A stretch of DNA of 39,150 nucleotides from an uncultured Candidatus Bathyarchaeia archaeon (GTDB lineage: Archaea > Thermoproteota > Bathyarchaeia > 40CM-2-53-6 > CAVXDP01), in assembly GCA_964549295.1 (NCBI GenBank), contig CAZJUU010000001.1, positions 1-39,150 of the forward strand. Reading direction: 5' to 3'. Within the stretch, counting starts at the first letter, position 1, and each line of letters starts with the position of its first letter. This document shows, piece after piece, positions 16,355 through 35,082 of this stretch. The notes below the pieces were generated by a model. It saw nothing but the letters and a program-made list of their open reading frames with translations. It did not search any database and was not told the DNA's origin. Both the position numbers and the translations under genes were made by a program.

Positions 16355-18238
16355 CTAGGAACTGGCGGGCAATGCATTTCTTATTTCTTCTTCCGCATTG
16401 TCAGCCTTGATGAATATGGGAACGTTCTCCATGCCTGTGGCTATGTAACTGGAAAGCAACCATTCACCGGGTGCAAACTCAAGTGTCTTCTCAAGGATGC
16501 TTTGGTCTATTGTGAACGTTTCGCTGACCAAATTCCGATCATACGGTCTCGGGAGGGTTCCCACGAAATACGTGTGAAGCTGCTGAAGCGCATTTGTGTT
16601 CAGGTAAGCTATTCTCTGTGTGGCCAAACATCCGCCTAGGCCGTATTTTCTTCCCTGTCTCAGAAGAACCTCAACCCTTTCGGAACAGTCTCTGTCTATG
16701 CCTCTGGCGTCGCCTAGCGCGGGGGCAAATTCTTGTGCTTCATCGAATACGAATAGGACAAGTGGTTCTACTCTGAACTTTTTCTTTCTCTTTCTGAGGA
16801 ATTCGTTGCTGAGGTCAACCGCCAGCTCCTTTATTATGAATTGATCGGCGATTGACAGGCACATCAGTTGGACAGGCCCTTCAACGAGTTCAATTATCTT
16901 CTCAGTTGTAAGACTTCTTCTCCGTCTCTCATCTGTCTCCCTTGCTCTTTGAATCACTTCAATCAGTGATGAGCGTGTAGTGGCCCAGCCGTACACGTTG
17001 CTTTTCTCACTGACTTTGAATTTCTCAACAGCTTCCTTCCCTTTCTGATCAATATAGCCGACGAACTCTTCATCAATTGGTTGACCGTCATCTAGCCCCT
17101 TCATCCTTTGATAGTCGAAAACGGCTTGGCGTATGCTTTCCAAGGCATCTTTGTATGTGGCTTTTCCAGTGATCTCTCCAGCCTGTTCATTGATTTCAGA
17201 GATGAATTGGGCGTATGTAGGAATCTTGAATCTCGGCCTGGTGTAGTTGAATATCTTGTTTTGGCTGCATATGGTGTCGAATACGTGTTCAATCTTCTCG
17301 TCCACGTGGAAATCTCTAGGTTTCACCACGGACATGAGTAGCTGCTCAGAAGTCTGGACAGGTGCCTCCAGCACTATTCTTGAATCCACGTTTGGATCCG
17401 CGAAGACATCCATGAGGAGGAATGGATACTCGCAAGATATGTCGAATATTATGATCTTCGTGTTTCTTCCGTGATAGATGAGTCTCCTGACGATGTTTGA
17501 GACAAGGTTCGATTTTCCTCCACCTGTGAAACTGAATATTCCAAAATGATACCTGACGAGGTTTTCAAAGTCTACAAATATCGGTATCCTCTCGAGGCTG
17601 CCCTCAAACATCTTTATTGTGCCAAGTCTCGGGCTTTCTCGAGCTTGGGGTTTCGACTCAAGCTTCTTTGTTGTGGTCGCCAACTTTTGCAGTACTCGCC
17701 TGTTGTACATTCGGTTGATCATGTCCTTGTTCAGAAGGTATGCGTTCTCCGCCACTATTGGATATGAGAATCCGCGGATATACTCAGGTTCTCTGCCGGG
17801 TCTCATTACTAGGTCGTAGTTGATTGGTATAGCGCTGATCTGAATCATCATGGTTGACTTATCGTTGGAGTCCCAATCCGAGACTGATTGTTGGATTATC
17901 TCAAACTGCATGGGGTAGTAACTCTGGTCAGAGAGGCCTCTGAGGCCATAATGTTCAGGGTGGATTCGAGAGATCTCTGTTAGGGTGTATCTTTCTCCAC
18001 TGCCCTGTGTAGACTTGAAATTCCTTGTTGCTAGAAGCATTCCTTCTTCTACGAGCCTCATGAGGTCCTTGTGATACTCAACCTTGATTTGGCAGGTATA
18101 GCGTGCGGATGCACCTAAGGTCTTGCCGGTATATGTTCCCTCAAGATTTCTGGTTGGAATAACAGCTGCGAGTCTGGCCTTGAATCGGCTGTCAAAATCT
18201 ACAAAATACCTACGCTGATCTTCTTCTAGTGTACTCAT
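16355..18238 (-). CDS. HerA-like FtsK/HerA-superfamily ATPase (DUF87-type)
   Basis: 627 aa. Walker A is GIFSFTGGGKSN (nt 17510..17533) and Walker B is LVLFVFDEAQEFAP (16727..16762). The HerA-type block RQGRKYGLGGCLATQR..LQQLHTYFVGTL is present. The roughly 235-aa N-terminal region lies where the HAS barrel sits in HerA. The ATG is preceded by AGGAGGG and lies 29 nt inside the upstream gene. Confidence 0.8.
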   Translation of the reverse strand: MSTLEEDQRRYFVDFDSRFKARLAAVIPTRNLEGTYTGKTLGASARYTCQIKVEYHKDLMRLVEEGMLLATRNFKSTQGSGERYTLTEISRIHPEHYGLRGLSDQSYYPMQFEIIQQSVSDWDSNDKSTMMIQISAIPINYDLVMRPGREPEYIRGFSYPIVAENAYLLNKDMINRMYNRRVLQKLATTTKKLESKPQARESPRLGTIKMFEGSLERIPIFVDFENLVRYHFGIFSFTGGGKSNLVSNIVRRLIYHGRNTKIIIFDISCEYPFLLMDVFADPNVDSRIVLEAPVQTSEQLLMSVVKPRDFHVDEKIEHVFDTICSQNKIFNYTRPRFKIPTYAQFISEINEQAGEITGKATYKDALESIRQAVFDYQRMKGLDDGQPIDEEFVGYIDQKGKEAVEKFKVSEKSNVYGWATTRSSLIEVIQRARETDERRRRSLTTEKIIELVEGPVQLMCLSIADQFIIKELAVDLSNEFLRKRKKKFRVEPLVLFVFDEAQEFAPALGDARGIDRDCSERVEVLLRQGRKYGLGGCLATQRIAYLNTNALQQLHTYFVGTLPRPYDRNLVSETFTIDQSILEKTLEFAPGEWLLSSYIATGMENVPIFIKADNAEEEIRNALPASS

Positions 18239-20093
18239 ACCGTGCCCTCCTTTCTCGGAATGTGTCCATATAAAATGTGAACTTTCTAAGGTTCCTGCTA
18301 TTCAAGATCCAGTCTTGAGTAGCATCTACAATCCTCTTGAACTCTCTGAAACTCCATTTCGCTGCATTGTCTGCGATGAAGAGTGGTTTGTTGTGACCGA
18401 ACATCTCCGGGATGCTTCGGTCACACATGGAATTAAGAATCGTCATAACCAAGTTCTGGATGGGGTTCTCGACATCTCTACGCTTGTACATCAGGACGGT
18501 CACTGGTTCTTCAGTTGATCCATATTCGTGTCTAAACTGAATGCTCGTCTCTTCCCTCAAATCATAATCTGGGTAGACCAGTCTATCAATCAGCAAGACG
18601 TTGCTTCTCAGTTTCGGATCGAAATCACTCTGGGAAAGCTGAATATAGGACTTTAGAAACAGTCTCTCCATCTGAACTATTCGATTTGCTGTGGCGCCAC
18701 TGACAAACATTGGTTTCACAGTCTCTTCAAGATATGGCACTATGGTCTTGAAGGCTGAATCATATTCTATCAGCGCCCAAGGAACAGTAATCACCTCGTG
18801 ATTAGAGACGGAGACCGATTGGAGAAACATTCTGTCAGTGCTAGGTGCCTCTCGCACCCTATCCAAATTGACATCGAAATCTAGAACGTTGTTCATTGTG
18901 CATACGGTAAGAACCTGTCTCATGAAGTCTCTGGCGGACGTGTCCTTTGTCAATCCAATCAATAGGACTCTTTGCTTCCAAGACTCCTCTATTATCATGT
19001 ACAAGCAGAACAATGTGAGAAATGCTAGATCCACAGTCGTAAGCCACGCTCTTCCAGTCTTCTTCTTCAGCAGCATAGGGTTTCCAGTATCTTCCGCGCC
19101 TTGACCGAGAAACAATCGATCTCCAATCTTAACCACGAGTTTCTTCAAGCAATTCCATGTGCCCACGTATCTCTCGTTAAGCATGTAGCCGCCACTTGTT
19201 CTTTCTATAACATCAGCTCTAACGCCTGAATCCAGTAGTGCACCAACTCTGCTTTTTCGTTTAGGGTCGTCTATGTGAAGTCTCGAACAGATCTGTTCGA
19301 GACTCAACTCTCCATGTATTTCAAGAAGATACATGAGACGATGTCTTAGGTAGTCACCTCGAGACGGTGGAAGATCGAGGACTGAGTTTGCCACTCTTCC
19401 TCTTCCAAAGGCCAGGTGGTAGCGATCTATCTGGACTCCATCCAGATCAAACCCCAGAAGACCACTGTTCTTTTCAACTCCTCCAAACTTGGCTGTGTCT
19501 GAGAGTAGAGCTGAATGTTCTCCTGAGAGAGTTCTGTCCATGAGAAGCACGTGTACTTTCTCATCTGTAATCATTCGATACGCAAGATAGAACTCTGAAA
19601 ACGCCATGATCCAATCAGCTATCTTCGAGTTATCAAAAACAGCTTGATCATCATGTGACTTCGCCAAGGCAGGAGACTTGTCTATGTCAGGGATATCGCT
19701 CACGTGTAGAGGTATGCAACTCGATATTCCTTTGCCATACTCAATGATCCTGTCTGAATACTCTACGATTGGTCCACTAGATTTTCTGAATTTGATGGTT
19801 CCAAGCGAGGCGCAGGATCCTCCGAAGAAAATGACTAACTCCTGCAATTGACGTGCATATTCAGTTCCATCGACGGCTGCGAATCTTATGGTGTCTGACC
19901 CAAACAGTTCCTTTGCGGTTTCATATGCTTTTGAGCCGGAAAAATTTGACGCGATGAAGTTATGGAGAAACTTATGATATATGTCCTTAACTGACTCAAA
20001 ACGTCTGTAGTAGTCAGTCACCCTCTCTTCAGCACCGCTTCTGAGAAGGTCACCAGTTCTTCGAATTTGAGAACTCAAATATGATGGTTCCAA
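18210..20093 (-). CDS. NurA-like nuclease (RNase H-like fold) with winged-helix-like insertion
   Basis: 627 aa. The motif order matches NurA: FAAVDGT (D75), AFSEF (E167), VLLMDRTL (D186, in place of the usual DGSL), IGLTKDTS (K383) and KPLFIADNAAK (D575). The insertion at aa 247-308 reads YLRHRLMYLLEIHGELSLEQICSRLHI..RVGALLDSGVRADVIERTSGGYMLNERY. The only in-frame start before these motifs is TTG 20093, or TTG/GTG a few codons downstream. Confidence 0.6.
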   Translation of the reverse strand: MEPSYLSSQIRRTGDLLRSGAEERVTDYYRRFESVKDIYHKFLHNFIASNFSGSKAYETAKELFGSDTIRFAAVDGTEYARQLQELVIFFGGSCASLGTIKFRKSSGPIVEYSDRIIEYGKGISSCIPLHVSDIPDIDKSPALAKSHDDQAVFDNSKIADWIMAFSEFYLAYRMITDEKVHVLLMDRTLSGEHSALLSDTAKFGGVEKNSGLLGFDLDGVQIDRYHLAFGRGRVANSVLDLPPSRGDYLRHRLMYLLEIHGELSLEQICSRLHIDDPKRKSRVGALLDSGVRADVIERTSGGYMLNERYVGTWNCLKKLVVKIGDRLFLGQGAEDTGNPMLLKKKTGRAWLTTVDLAFLTLFCLYMIIEESWKQRVLLIGLTKDTSARDFMRQVLTVCTMNNVLDFDVNLDRVREAPSTDRMFLQSVSVSNHEVITVPWALIEYDSAFKTIVPYLEETVKPMFVSGATANRIVQMERLFLKSYIQLSQSDFDPKLRSNVLLIDRLVYPDYDLREETSIQFRHEYGSTEEPVTVLMYKRRDVENPIQNLVMTILNSMCDRSIPEMFGHNKPLFIADNAAKWSFREFKRIVDATQDWILNSRNLRKFTFYMDTFRERRARYEYTRRRSA

Positions 20094-20169: not shown

Positions 20170-20183
20170 CTATTTAACTTATA
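20170..20183 (-). promoter_or_regulatory. TATA-like element(s) for the NurA/HerA-like operon
   Basis: The minus strand reads TATAAGTTAAATAG, in the 136-nt gap between the 120-aa ORF and the NurA-like start. Confidence 0.35.
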
Positions 20184-20229: not shown

Positions 20230-20592
20230 TTATTGAGAGCTCAGTTGCAGAAATTCCTTCAGCTCCTTCAGTGTGAGAAATGCCGCGTCGAAAGCTTTGC
20301 CGCCTTTTCTTGTGAGCCAAATCTTTCTCAATTTCGTTCTCTTGATTCCCGCAATGAATTCATCAATGCTCAGACTTTCTGGGTGAGGGTGGTTGCTTTC
20401 AACGTGTATATGATGAAGCAGTTGTTGTTTCGAACTCTTCGCCGCTACCTCTTGTGGAAGCTTGAAGTAGGCTATGTGTCCATGTCCAAGCTTGTAGACT
20501 CCGTAAACGGACTTGTCACGCATCCAGAATAGGATCAATGTGAATGGGTGAATCTTGTTGATGATTCCGGCGATCTCGGATTCTTCAATCAT
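20230..20592 (-). CDS. Hypothetical 120-aa protein (no recognisable family)
   Basis: It has an ATG start and protein-like composition and codon choice (AAG, GAA and ATC rich). The overlapping plus-strand ORF 20197..20532 is Leu/Arg/Ser-rich, as expected of an antisense shadow. On the minus strand GATATAAG (plus coordinates 20646-20653) lies about 54 nt upstream. Confidence 0.4.
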   Translation of the reverse strand: MIEESEIAGIINKIHPFTLILFWMRDKSVYGVYKLGHGHIAYFKLPQEVAAKSSKQQLLHHIHVESNHPHPESLSIDEFIAGIKRTKLRKIWLTRKGGKAFDAAFLTLKELKEFLQLSSQ

Positions 20593-30815: not shown

Positions 30816-31832
30816 GTGAGACTAGAACAAGCCTTGTCAGACCCTATTCTTTGCCTTGGAATCGAAGCCACCGCCCATACTTTTGGCGCCAGTATCGTCA
30901 CAAGTGAAGGTGAGATACTATCAGATGTGAAGGATACATATGTTCCAGCGGTTGGAAAGGGAATACATCCAAGAGAAGCAGCACAACATCACTCCCAAGT
31001 CTGTGCTGACGTTGTTCAGAAAGCGTTTAGAGCTGCGAAAAGACGCCCACATGAGATCGATGCAGTAGCCGTTTCGTTAGGACCTGGTCTAGGCCCAGCT
31101 TTGAGAACTGGTGCTACCGTCGCTAGAGGAATAGCAGCGTTCTTGGACAAACCACTAATTCCTATTCATCATGCAATAGGCCATATCGAGATAGCTGCGC
31201 TTACGACTAGGATGGAGGATCCACTTGTTCTCCTTGTTTCTGGAGGTCATACTGCAATAGCTGCATGCGCGAAAGGGAAGTGGAGAATCTTCGGTGAAAC
31301 AGAAGACATTACTATTGGAAACCTTTTCGATATGTTCTCGAGAGCAGCGAAGCTCCCGTCTCCGGGGGGAGTCAGCGTAGAGAGACTTGCGCAGAAAAGT
31401 TCAAACTACATCGACCTACCTTACACGGTGAAGGGGAATGATGTCTCCTACTCTGGGCTTCTAACGGCATCGAGGAAGAAACTTGATGACGGCGTTCCGG
31501 TGGAAGACATATGCTTCTCGCTTCAGGAGGTGTCCTTTTCAATGTTGACCGAAGCGACTGAGAGAAGTTTGGCTCATACAGAGAAGAAAGAACTTCTCTT
31601 GACAGGTGGAGTTGCAGCAAATATGCGTCTTCAAAACATGATGAAGATCATCGCTGAAGAACACAACGCACGATTCAGTGTTGTGGACTCAAAATACAGT
31701 GGAGACTGTGGTGCTCAGATCGCCTGGACAGGGATTTTGGCTCACAAGTCTGGAGTCCAAGTGGAAGTGGAAACGAGCTTTGTTAAACCGCGATGGCGAC
31801 TGGACACGGTTTCGGTTCCGTGGAGGCCTTGA
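30816..31832 (+). CDS. kae1: tRNA N6-adenosine threonylcarbamoyltransferase Kae1 (KEOPS catalytic subunit)
   Basis: ILCLGIEATAHTFGASIV, HH..V, PIHHAIGHIE, LLVSGGHT and LTGGVAANMRLQ are present. The start is GTG 30816 or TTG 30834. Confidence 0.9.
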   Translation: MRLEQALSDPILCLGIEATAHTFGASIVTSEGEILSDVKDTYVPAVGKGIHPREAAQHHSQVCADVVQKAFRAAKRRPHEIDAVAVSLGPGLGPALRTGATVARGIAAFLDKPLIPIHHAIGHIEIAALTTRMEDPLVLLVSGGHTAIAACAKGKWRIFGETEDITIGNLFDMFSRAAKLPSPGGVSVERLAQKSSNYIDLPYTVKGNDVSYSGLLTASRKKLDDGVPVEDICFSLQEVSFSMLTEATERSLAHTEKKELLLTGGVAANMRLQNMMKIIAEEHNARFSVVDSKYSGDCGAQIAWTGILAHKSGVQVEVETSFVKPRWRLDTVSVPWRP

Positions 31833-31839
31833 TCCAGAC

Positions 31840-32475
31840 ATGCCCCTTATCAGGAAAGGAGCAGAAGCCAACCTCTACCTCGAAGACTGGCATGACTACA
31901 AAGTCATAGTGAAAAGACGTGTCTGCAAAACATACAGACTTAGGGCACTGGATACAAAGCTTAGAAGCTTTAGAACCATCCATGAATCCCAAATAATGCA
32001 TGAAGCGAAACGTTCCGGCGTTCCGACCCCGATAATATACTTGGTCGATCCCAAAGAATACACGATAGTCATGGAGTTTGTTTCTGGAAGGAGACTGAAG
32101 GAAGCAATTGAAGAGACATCAAACGAAGGCCGTCGTGACATATGCCAACTAGCTGGATGCCAAATTGCGATGCTTCATCACAACAACATCATACACGGCG
32201 ACCTAACCACCTCAAACATGATTCTTACGGACGAACAGAAAATCTTCTTCATAGATTTCGGCCTCAGTTACTATTCAATCGAAGTTGAAGATCGTGGAGT
32301 TGACCTGCACCTCATGAAGAGAGCGCTCAATAGCACCCATTACCTTCATGGAGAGAAATGTTTCGGCCATGTGATTCAGGGATACAAAGAACTTGCTGGA
32401 ACCAAGCGGACACATGAAGTTGTCGAAAAGGTTCGTGAAATTGAACGGCGAGGCAGATACTATGCCGAGCGCTAG
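31840..32475 (+). CDS. bud32: Bud32/PRPK atypical kinase (KEOPS subunit)
   Basis: LIRKGAEANLY, VIVKRR..K.YR, IIHGDLTTSNMIL, FIDFGLS and the C-terminal EIERRGRY are present. The ATG lies 7 nt after the Kae1 stop, in a different frame. The track's upstream extension to 31678 overlaps kae1. Confidence 0.85.
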   Translation: MPLIRKGAEANLYLEDWHDYKVIVKRRVCKTYRLRALDTKLRSFRTIHESQIMHEAKRSGVPTPIIYLVDPKEYTIVMEFVSGRRLKEAIEETSNEGRRDICQLAGCQIAMLHHNNIIHGDLTTSNMILTDEQKIFFIDFGLSYYSIEVEDRGVDLHLMKRALNSTHYLHGEKCFGHVIQGYKELAGTKRTHEVVEKVREIERRGRYYAER

Positions 32476-33639: not shown

Positions 33640-35082
33640 ATGTCAGAACCTGCCTACCGACCATTCCTCTCAAAAATCCGAGAAGCTCGAGACTTCATTC
33701 TAGACGAGACGAAGAAGAACTCCAGACTTCTCATTCTAACCCACTTTGATGCAGATGGACTAGCTGCGGGTGGAATTATCGGAAAAACACTTATGCGAAT
33801 TGGTTCAACCTTTCAAATGAGAACAGTCAAACAACTTGACGAAGAGACTATATCAGAAGCACTGACGGTGGAGCCGGACGCCGTAATATTCTCTGAAACT
33901 GGGAGCGGGTACCTAGACACTATAGGGAAAGCTCTGAAGAAGCAGAAAGGTCTCGTCCTAGACCATCACAAGCCTCTGGGACAAACCCCGTCAAATATAG
34001 TCCACATAAACCCGCATGAGTACGGGATAGATGGTGCAAGAGACCTAAGCGGTTCAGGGGTAGTCTACCTCGCAGCAAAAACGATCGATGAATCGAATGT
34101 GGACTTGTCGTCACTCGCTGTTGTCGGCGCCCTAGGGGACATGCAGGACAAGAATGAGAAACGGACACTTCGTGGAGTGAATCAAATCATAGTTGACGAC
34201 GCCGTGAAGAATGGGTTGATGAGAACCGATACTGATCTCATACTCTACGGAAGAGAAACGCGACCAATACATAAGGCTCTGGCCTTCACAACCAATCCTT
34301 TCCTTCCCGGATTATCAGGCGAAGAGGACAAGTGTCTTGCACTGTTGTCTTCCGCCGGTATTCCTCTGGAAAATGAGGGTAAATGGAGAAGTGTCGCTGA
34401 TCTTTCGTTAGAGGAGAAGCAGAACCTTCTGACCAAGATAATTCAACACATTGCCTCCTTGGGATTCCCAGGAAATGTTGCCTTGAACTTGATTGGTACA
34501 AGTTACACGCTAATTCATGAGCAGAAGTCAACTCAGCTTCGAGACGCGAGGGAATTCTCATCTCTTCTAAACGCCTGTGGGCGAATGCGCAAACCAGGCA
34601 TAGCGCTCCAAATTTGCCTAGGAGAAAGAGGAGCTATTCTGGATGAAGTTCAACAATTGGTGCTGGAGTATCGACAGACATTGGCAAAGTATGTTGATTG
34701 GTTGACTCAGGCGCGTGAGAAAATAGTTGAGTTGAAGACTGTGTACGTCGTTCACGGCGAAGGCATAGTAGATGACAATATGACTGGTGCAATATCATCA
34801 ATGGTCTCGTCCGCAGGGATTCTGGGAACCGACAAAGCTCTGATAGTGCTCGCAAGAACCTCCCGCGGTAAGATCAGGGTCTCAGCAAGAGCCCCGAGAG
34901 TGCTCATTGAGAAGAACGTGAACTTGGATCTCGCGTTGCGAGAATCCGCTCAGAAAGCGTCAGGCATAGGAGGAGGTCACGATGTGGCGGCGGGAGCCCA
35001 GGTACCTGAAGACAAGCTTGAGGGCTTCCTGAGAGACGTTGACGAAACAATCTTGAATCAGATGAGTCTGAGCAAGAGTTGA
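33640..35082 (+). CDS. DHH-superfamily RecJ/GAN-like protein
   Basis: LILTHFDADGLAAGGI (DHH motifs I and II), LVLDHH (motif III) and GIGGGHDVAAGA (DHHA1 GGGH) are present. It immediately follows rps15, as in many archaea. Confidence 0.8.
   Translation: MSEPAYRPFLSKIREARDFILDETKKNSRLLILTHFDADGLAAGGIIGKTLMRIGSTFQMRTVKQLDEETISEALTVEPDAVIFSETGSGYLDTIGKALKKQKGLVLDHHKPLGQTPSNIVHINPHEYGIDGARDLSGSGVVYLAAKTIDESNVDLSSLAVVGALGDMQDKNEKRTLRGVNQIIVDDAVKNGLMRTDTDLILYGRETRPIHKALAFTTNPFLPGLSGEEDKCLALLSSAGIPLENEGKWRSVADLSLEEKQNLLTKIIQHIASLGFPGNVALNLIGTSYTLIHEQKSTQLRDAREFSSLLNACGRMRKPGIALQICLGERGAILDEVQQLVLEYRQTLAKYVDWLTQAREKIVELKTVYVVHGEGIVDDNMTGAISSMVSSAGILGTDKALIVLARTSRGKIRVSARAPRVLIEKNVNLDLALRESAQKASGIGGGHDVAAGAQVPEDKLEGFLRDVDETILNQMSLSKS

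Follow-up and report, generated by a model that had tools for sequence, protein, structure and literature searches.

A long, winged-helix form of NurA encoded with a divergent HerA in a conserved operon of Bathyarchaeia

The subject of this study is a pair of overlapping genes on the 39,150-nucleotide contig CAZJUU010000001.1 (assembly GCA_964549295.1) of an uncultured Candidatus Bathyarchaeia archaeon. The entire contig was analysed and is called the window here. The pair consists of two minus-strand open reading frames (ORFs) of 627 aa each, located at 16355..18238 and 18210..20093, and it was confirmed, as reported in the initial annotation of the window, that they share 29 nt. The proximal gene (18210..20093), which begins with a TTG codon that matches the N-termini of its homologues, encodes a long-form NurA nuclease into which a winged helix is inserted, and the distal gene (16355..18238), which begins with ATG, encodes an FtsK/HerA-family hexameric translocase ATPase. 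The overlap at 18210..18238 is a site of translational coupling, and a GGAGG motif was read in the sequence 8 nt before the ATG of herA, within the 3′ end of nurA. The promoter-like region that the initial annotation assigned to the pair comes down to a TATA-like box, TATAAGTTAAATA, read at 20171-20183 on the minus strand, 77 nt upstream of the nurA TTG, which is plausible as a putative nurA promoter. The pair has the same GC content as its flanks and is wedged, as previously described, between gltX (GluRS), which is convergent to herA and ends 13 nt from the herA stop codon, and a group of genes encoding L7Ae, NDK, Lrp, aIF5B, S6e and S24e.

The product of the distal gene is a HerA. It exceeded the cutoff of the Pfam family PF01935 (DUF87) with 56.9 bits (cutoff 23.2; E 4e-15) and matched many PADLOC HerA models, the best being a CRISPR type III “coevolved” HerA (7e-41), and all of the top 30 Foldseek matches to its predicted structure were HerA subunits, including those of DUF4297-HerA, SIR2-HerA, TdpAB, T. 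kodakarensis HerA and D. radiodurans HerA. Searches of the PDB by sequence gave weak matches to solved HerAs, from defence and repair complexes alike. The scores against the NCBIfam equivalog models were 44.6 bits for the repair HerA NF040819 (cutoff 970), 25.2 bits for the repair HerA NF040937 (cutoff 800), 40.1 bits for HerA_antiphage_2 (cutoff 850) and 32.4 bits for HerA_antiphage (cutoff 800). Judged by these scores, the window protein is no equivalog of the characterised repair HerAs, and because it falls far below every one of the equivalog cutoffs, it is a divergent HerA outside all characterised subgroups.

The HerA motifs quoted in the initial annotation, like those of the NurA described below, were all found at their exact positions. 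The Walker A motif GIFSFTGGGKSN (residues 233-244, 17507..17542, minus strand) is invariant in 24 orthologues, and its lysine, K242, is encoded at 17513-17515 (minus strand). The Walker B motif LVLFVFDEAQEFAP (residues 493-506, 16721..16762, minus strand), with D499/E500 encoded at 16739-16744 (minus strand), is also invariant and aligns with the Walker B region of the HerA in 8wiv. The RQGRKYG block RQGRKYGLGGCLATQR (residues 527-542, 16613..16660, minus strand) is likewise invariant and aligns with GRKYGIG of a solved HerA, and from this alignment it would be the sensor / arginine-finger region. Residues 1-230 were predicted to be β-rich, at low confidence (predicted local distance difference test, pLDDT, 28-80), in the region where the HAS barrel is expected. 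An N-terminal extension of about 235 aa ahead of the P-loop had been proposed, but this was an overstatement: solved HerAs have ~165-185 residues ahead of the P-loop, so that most of this segment is the normal N-terminal region, and the excess is ~48-70 residues.

The product of the proximal gene is a NurA, as evaluated by its fold, by its motifs and by profile matches obtained through its relatives. In a Foldseek search with its AlphaFold model (pLDDT 81.7; predicted template modelling score, pTM, 0.86), the top 10 matches were solved NurA structures only, with E values of 2e-9 to 2e-6, and the next match had E > 0.01. These NurA structures included 9x1m_G (2e-9), 3taz, 3tal, 3tai and 2ygk (2e-6, with a template modelling (TM) score of 0.68 on the target). 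The Pfam family PF09376 was matched by 18 of 26 close relatives (best E 1.2e-7) and by 19 of 40 broader relatives (best E 2.8e-11). Furthermore, a profile of 40 family members was aligned with the P. furiosus NurA 3tai (E 0.0036) in three collinear segments, which paired AIDGT with AVDGS (containing D51), LLDRSLSG with ILMDGTLTG (D126) and PLFLAD with PLQLAH (H411). The family contains many relatives that are ~630 aa long.

The contrary possibility is that the proximal ORF does not encode a NurA and that the motif likeness arose by chance. It is true that, in profile searches, the HerA passed DUF87 whereas the NurA-like protein itself had no match to PF09376 at E ≤ 1 and no match to an NCBIfam NurA model or to any PADLOC model; in addition, a single-sequence PDB search found no NurA, and a narrow family profile matched winged-helix proteins in the PDB but no NurA, the broader profile being required for that. 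Because the window protein reaches no NurA model, its membership of NurA rests on fold, motifs and relatives. However, the initial annotation had left room for a product that could not be placed in the NurA fold, and the outcome was the opposite, in that fold searching retrieved NurA structures alone at E ≤ 2e-6, the relatives matched PF09376 with E values down to 2.8e-11, and the broad profile reached P. furiosus NurA with three catalytic motifs in collinear order. NCBI, moreover, already calls one family member NurA. We therefore regard a chance likeness as scarcely credible.

Conservation in the NurA was followed across 40 sequences with identities as low as 20%, in which D75, E167, D186, G380, K383 and D384 did not vary. 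Asp75, in the motif AAVDGT (residues 72-77), is encoded at 19869..19871 (minus strand) and is the predicted first catalytic carboxylate; it aligns with P. furiosus D51 (D71 of the chain in the tagged construct), and the D49A mutant of T. kodakarensis NurA is inactive (PMC12977600). The presumed catalytic Glu167 (19593..19595, minus strand), in FSEFYLAY (with FSEF at residues 165-168), immediately precedes the YLAY segment aligned to P. furiosus NurA, and we infer from its place, rather than from an alignment of the residue itself, that it is equivalent to P. furiosus E105. Asp186, in LLMDRTLSG (with LLMDRTL at residues 183-189; Asp186 codon at 19536..19538, minus strand), aligns with D126 and is the predicted catalytic Asp. 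The fourth catalytic position would be Asp575 in PLFIADNAAK (residues 570-579; Asp575 codon at 18369..18371, minus strand), which is at least 90% conserved and aligns with H411. Together, these residues predict a D-E-D-D active site, in which the fourth catalytic residue is Asp and not His. The motif GLTKDTS (residues 380-386, 18936..18956, minus strand), which contains the invariant G380, K383 and D384, presumably has a functional role as well.

The NurA was correctly described as enlarged (627 aa in comparison to ~330-450 aa in the solved proteins), and the extra length comes mainly from a winged helix-turn-helix insert at residues ~248-305 (19179..19352, minus strand). This insert was identified by both profile and fold matches: HTH_24, AsnC-type or MarR matches were found at this position in 8 of 26 relatives, profile searches matched Lrp-type, MarR and Z-alpha winged helices, and the AlphaFold model has the pattern helix-helix-helix-strand-strand, to which the DNA-binding domains of MarR and CggR were matched by Foldseek. 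We found no report of a winged-helix NurA in the literature, and the long winged-helix NurA-HerA is apparently an undescribed, distinct subfamily. The window carries a real HerA-NurA pair, in which the HerA-NurA partnership is already known and the long winged-helix form is apparently new.

The distribution of the pair was evaluated by a GTDB scan of one genome per species, in which relatives were present in at least 234 species-representative genomes; the best 80, which were listed, had 45-82% identity, and nearly all were labelled Bathyarchaeia. The herA gene was directly downstream of nurA in ~74 of the 80 Bathyarchaeia loci, the stop/start overlap was about -23 to -29 nt in ~65 of 81 related loci, and the pairwise distances of NurA and of HerA were correlated with r = 0.97. 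Therefore, nurA and herA are translationally coupled and co-evolving. In three loci (L041, L042 and L049), the two genes were found 1-2 kb apart.

This coupling bears on the idea that the HerA is mainly an FtsK-like DNA pump, for chromosome segregation/resolution or DNA transfer, with the NurA as an accessory trimming nuclease. The HerA belongs to the FtsK-HerA superfamily, archaea lack FtsK (PMC12977600), and there was a weak NCBIfam match (5e-8) to the DNA-translocating ATPase CedD. However, no membrane or division genes are linked to the pair, the solved structural neighbours are all HerA-effector complexes, and the strict coupling with a nuclease whose active site is intact points to DNA degradation; we consider a pump to be very unlikely.

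The genomic setting was examined in the window and in the relatives. All larger ORFs scanned across the 39 kb were housekeeping genes apart from the pair, the longest being 627 aa, and the window gave no match in scans for tRNAs and Rfam families. Ahead of the pair are genes for an amino-acid permease, RpoD, L18e, L13, S2, the mevalonate pathway, UbiA, geranylgeranyl reductase, DUF2070 and GluRS, and beyond S24e are those for RpoE, aIF2-gamma, Kae1/Bud32, a DHH-family protein and SerRS. Synteny with the two closest relatives was unbroken from DUF2070 to aIF5B, and the pair was 81-84% identical to theirs, compared to 65-95% for the flanking core genes. The annotated contexts elsewhere varied by lineage, yet were housekeeping or metabolic. 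In a survey of the 150 ORFs closest to the pair in 45 Bathyarchaeia loci (alignment A4), the recurrent Pfam families were 2-oxoacid:ferredoxin oxidoreductase subunits (10-17 ORFs), GNAT acetyltransferases (7) and transporters, and each PADLOC family matched at most 3 of the 150 ORFs. Alignments of Bathyarchaeia-type NurA and HerA had no relatives among 2.9 million viral contigs, and a plasmid search with the window NurA gave no match. The pair is therefore a vertically inherited core operon in Bathyarchaeia, widely conserved, with a coupled layout in housekeeping contexts, and not patchy.

Several smaller observations were made on these loci. Cas1 (best E 2e-81) and AbiEi (best E 1e-76) accounted for 2 nearest-neighbour ORFs each in the 45 loci. 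A large Bathyarchaeia subclade has two genes for 2-oxoacid:ferredoxin oxidoreductase subunits convergent just downstream of herA, for example at L027:13871-16102, L035:13748-15958 and L047:13753-15975. A Bathyarchaeia-type pair, with ~47-61% identity, was also found in L057 (DASPWZ010000017.1), P0394 and L075 (JAFNJA010000081.1), on contigs labelled “Candidatus Dormiibacterota bacterium” (L057/P0394) and “Candidatus Brockarchaeota” (L075); these labels are probably due to mis-binning or mislabelling rather than to gene transfer.

In the window itself, a 120-aa ORF (20230-20592, minus strand) that matched no Pfam family lies between nurA and the L7Ae gene. L005 and L006, the two closest relatives, have it at the same position with 66-67% identity, and it is not conserved elsewhere in the class; it was rejected as a third component of the system because only these two relatives keep it. 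Farther away, and not linked to the pair, 33640-35082 (plus strand) encodes the DHH-family protein, with DHH-CID and DHHA1 domains, an architecture that we take to be that of archaeal RecJ/GAN nucleases, and 30816-32475 (plus strand) contains overlapping Kae1 and Bud32-like ORFs; these are more DNA- and tRNA-maintenance genes on the contig.

The initial annotation had found no mre11 or rad50 anywhere in the 39 kb, and our ORF scan agreed. Motif scans were extended to 1.52 Mb of family loci, in which no Rad50-like ORF was found, only the P-loops of ABC transporters, and the only candidate for Mre11 was one small generic phosphoesterase. The pair is thus unlinked, but this is not the anomaly that it was taken to be, because linkage of herA/nurA to mre11/rad50 is a trait of thermophiles (PMC7776575) and, in D. 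radiodurans, the nurA-herA operon that serves recombination also stands alone (PMC12977600). No inventory of mre11, rad50, herA and nurA in Bathyarchaeia was found in the literature.

Two readings had been offered at the outset, a diverged resection machine or a stand-alone module for defence or DNA surveillance, and it had been allowed that the pair might instead be universal in the lineage, with mre11-rad50 encoded elsewhere. The wide conservation of the pair (at least 234 species genomes), its housekeeping context and its divergence at the rate of core genes speak for a herA/nurA that is the lineage's own rather than for a defence module that stands alone and is patchy, and so universality in the lineage is largely borne out. 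We consider it fairly probable that the pair is the lineage's own HerA-NurA and serves chromosomal DNA-end processing.

Solved complexes serve as the model for the proposed complex formation, substrate and cellular role. In this scheme, a hexamer of HerA would load on a double-stranded DNA end and, driven by ATP, feed the duplex into a NurA dimer, in which two RNase H-like active sites (D75, E167, D186 and D575) would degrade the strands. The winged helix would probably provide an extra contact with DNA or a gating/regulatory contact. The most likely cellular use would be double-strand-break or fork repair by recombination, from a pair encoded apart from any mre11/rad50, and the pair may double, as RecBCD does, as a degrader of foreign linear DNA.

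Several points weigh against this assignment to chromosomal end processing. The NurA itself, as described above, matches no NurA model, and the HerA model is of moderate confidence (pLDDT 67.8). Two loci, L023 (CP070791.1, a complete chromosome) and L048, have a full-length nurA, but herA is missing from the 10 kb that follow it. In T. kodakarensis, HerA-NurA degrades both strands, and the authors of that work question whether it acts in resection and suggest that it may be antiviral (PMC12977600). The remaining points come from distant members of the family, which are found in defence or mobile islands and beside DpdA/DUF6884 genes, and which therefore suggest that the family overall is used in conflict systems.

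These distant members were identified by an exhaustive profile search, which gave 505 clusters at E ≤ 1e-3. Many of these clusters are full-length proteins of ~600 aa with 22-28% identity to the window NurA, and there was no short canonical NurA among the best 150 of the 505; therefore, there is a distinct “long NurA” family (~600-640 aa), of which the Bathyarchaeia proteins form one clade. The named distant members are from Thermoplasmataceae, Culexarchaeia and a Fimbriimonadales bacterium. In the Candidatus Culexarchaeum yellowstonense locus (L090:2421-11815), the long nurA and herA are divergent, with an acylphosphatase gene between them, and a 767-aa metallophosphoesterase is encoded ~3 kb beyond herA and ~5 kb from nurA; one protein of the L090 cluster has the NCBI name “DNA double-strand break repair nuclease NurA”.

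The distant pairs L085, L088 and L089 are located in islands. L085 has many tiny ORFs together with genes for HNH, SIR2-ORC/CDC6-like, DUF6884 and Dam methyltransferase proteins. L088:10001-12694 encodes an 897-aa NurA with ~300 extra N-terminal residues, followed by HerA, and is flanked on one side by a type I restriction-modification system with an AAA_15/21 ATPase and on the other by genes for a UvrD-PDDEXK protein of 1056 aa, a ParE toxin and an rve integrase. The third island, L089, contains a tyrosine integrase. A further 80 loci of this distant branch, from metagenomes, spanned 26-68% GC, and herA was adjacent to nurA in 67 of 71. The 143 nearest neighbours in the distant branch included DpdA 19 times (+3; best E 8e-122), DUF6884 18 times, TGT 8 times and ThsA/SIR2 4 times, as well as methyltransferases, restriction enzymes, Vsr, GajB, DRT, QueC and a YhhQ-type transporter.

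It was found by tblastn that a DUF6884 and/or TGT-like gene abuts the pair in ~34 of the 53 distant loci with enough flank. The DUF6884 (YaaA-like) and/or DpdA/TGT-like gene is placed directly after herA or directly before nurA, which gives a compact module in L085:10001-14954, L091:10001-15284, L095, L098, L101, L106, L111, L114, L118, L124, L127, L133, L134, L139, L163 and others, often within defence islands. In contrast, the pair has no DpdA, TGT-like or DUF6884 gene beside it either in the window or across 84 Bathyarchaeia loci, apart from one weak distal match in L012. Plasmid and phage searches with the distant member P0164 found nothing, and no paper tying DpdA to HerA or NurA was found in the literature. 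The compact NurA-HerA-DUF6884/DpdA module could represent a restriction system, as yet undescribed, that is connected with 7-deazaguanine modification, and this three-gene branch in other organisms is a more novel lead than the window pair.

It follows from such neighbours that the Bathyarchaeia pair could itself be primarily a chromosomal module of defence or DNA surveillance against invading linear or unmodified DNA, fixed throughout the class, with the DpdA/DUF6884-linked restriction arm as its relatives. The arguments for this are the full-length similarity to pairs that lie in islands, the richness of the distant neighbourhoods in DpdA, DUF6884 and defence genes, the abutting DUF6884 and/or TGT-like genes, the wide range of GC content of the hosts, the fact that the window HerA scored best in PADLOC on a CRISPR type III model, and the antiviral role proposed for the T. 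kodakarensis complex. Genes for defence, as a rule, have a patchy distribution and are replaced rapidly. The Bathyarchaeia pair, however, is outside defence islands (no defence model matched more than 2-3 of the 150 neighbours), has no DpdA/DUF6884 partner, is widely conserved with stable synteny and divergence like that of core genes, and was not found on viral contigs. A primary role in defence is accordingly possible but, in our judgement, rather unlikely. The pair could also serve in both roles, as RecBCD does.

A broader proposal would unite both branches: the long winged-helix NurA and HerA would be an undescribed family of DNA-surveillance nucleases, with a mobile DpdA/DUF6884 restriction arm outside Bathyarchaeia, spread between bacteria and archaea, and a partner-less, RecBCD-like guardian inside the class. 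If this were true, the Bathyarchaeia pair would be a constitutive, class-wide degrader of foreign or broken DNA, and not a resection factor assisted by Mre11/Rad50. We hold this proposal to be a tentative one, about as doubtful as a primary role in defence, and retain chromosomal DNA-end processing as the preferred interpretation.

The cellular role of archaeal HerA-NurA is disputed between end resection and the degradation of foreign DNA (PMC12977600). The long-NurA family offers a natural contrast, in which one clade, from an archaeal class that is very abundant and scarcely cultivated, keeps the pair as a core operon and can be set against a sister branch in defence islands that has the same architecture and is coupled to DNA-modification genes. 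Since this contrast exists within one homologous family, it opens the repair-versus-immunity question to comparative genomics and biochemistry, and the winged-helix insert and the D-E-D-D active site are features to probe. Annotation would also benefit, in that most of the source-named homologues among those listed are now labelled “hypothetical protein” or “ATP-binding protein”.

In comparison to the archaeal HerA-NurA systems of S. solfataricus, P. furiosus and T. kodakarensis (2ygk, 3tai, 9x1l-9x1p), the window pair has the same HerA and NurA RNase H-like folds, and the catalytic D, E and D of its NurA appear collinear with those of P. furiosus NurA. The adjacency and co-evolution of nurA and herA imply the same architecture of a HerA hexamer with a NurA dimer. 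The window pair differs from these systems in its very low sequence similarity, in the length of its NurA, with the winged helix placed between catalytic segments, in the predicted Asp instead of His at the fourth catalytic position, in the additional residues ahead of the HerA P-loop and in the lack of linkage to mre11/rad50. The bacterial NurA-HerA of Deinococcus radiodurans and Thermus thermophilus (7wrw, 7f6d) is likewise a two-gene operon unlinked to mre11/rad50, its HerA fold matches that of the window protein, and its NurA also carries lineage-specific extra regions (PMC12977600). However, the extension of Deinococcus NurA is N-terminal, with no winged-helix insert, and the long-NurA clade, to which the Bathyarchaeia pair belongs, is a different family.

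The window HerA is structurally as close to the HerAs of SIR2-HerA/Nezha and DUF4297-HerA (8j4u, 8xau, 8ziq) as to repair-type HerAs, and these anti-phage pairs follow the same two-gene logic of a HerA plus an effector nuclease. The effector in the window is a NurA, in contrast to SIR2 or DUF4297, and the Bathyarchaeia clade is neither in defence islands nor patchy. HerA and NurA associated with type III CRISPR were reportedly described by Shah et al. 2018 as clusters 57/58, which are said to be the source of the PADLOC “coevolved” model. That assignment was rejected for the window locus because there are no cas genes nearby: none were among the window ORFs scanned, and Cas1 was near the pair in 2 of 45 loci only. 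In the case of the Dpd 7-deazaguanine system (DpdA/B/C with DpdD-K), the likeness is confined to the distant long-NurA/HerA members, which are directly flanked by DpdA-like and DUF6884 genes and have QueC and YhhQ-type genes near them, whereas the Bathyarchaeia pair has no such adjoining gene. Neither HerA nor NurA is part of the classical Dpd cluster as it has been described (PMC10164549).

The last comparison, with RecBCD/AddAB, is one of functional analogy only, since these protein families are unrelated to HerA and NurA, and we know of no Chi-like control in HerA-NurA. What is shared is an ATP-driven motor and a nuclease that work from double-stranded DNA ends, and a similar dual service of the Bathyarchaeia pair, in recombinational repair and in the destruction of foreign linear DNA, is conceivable.

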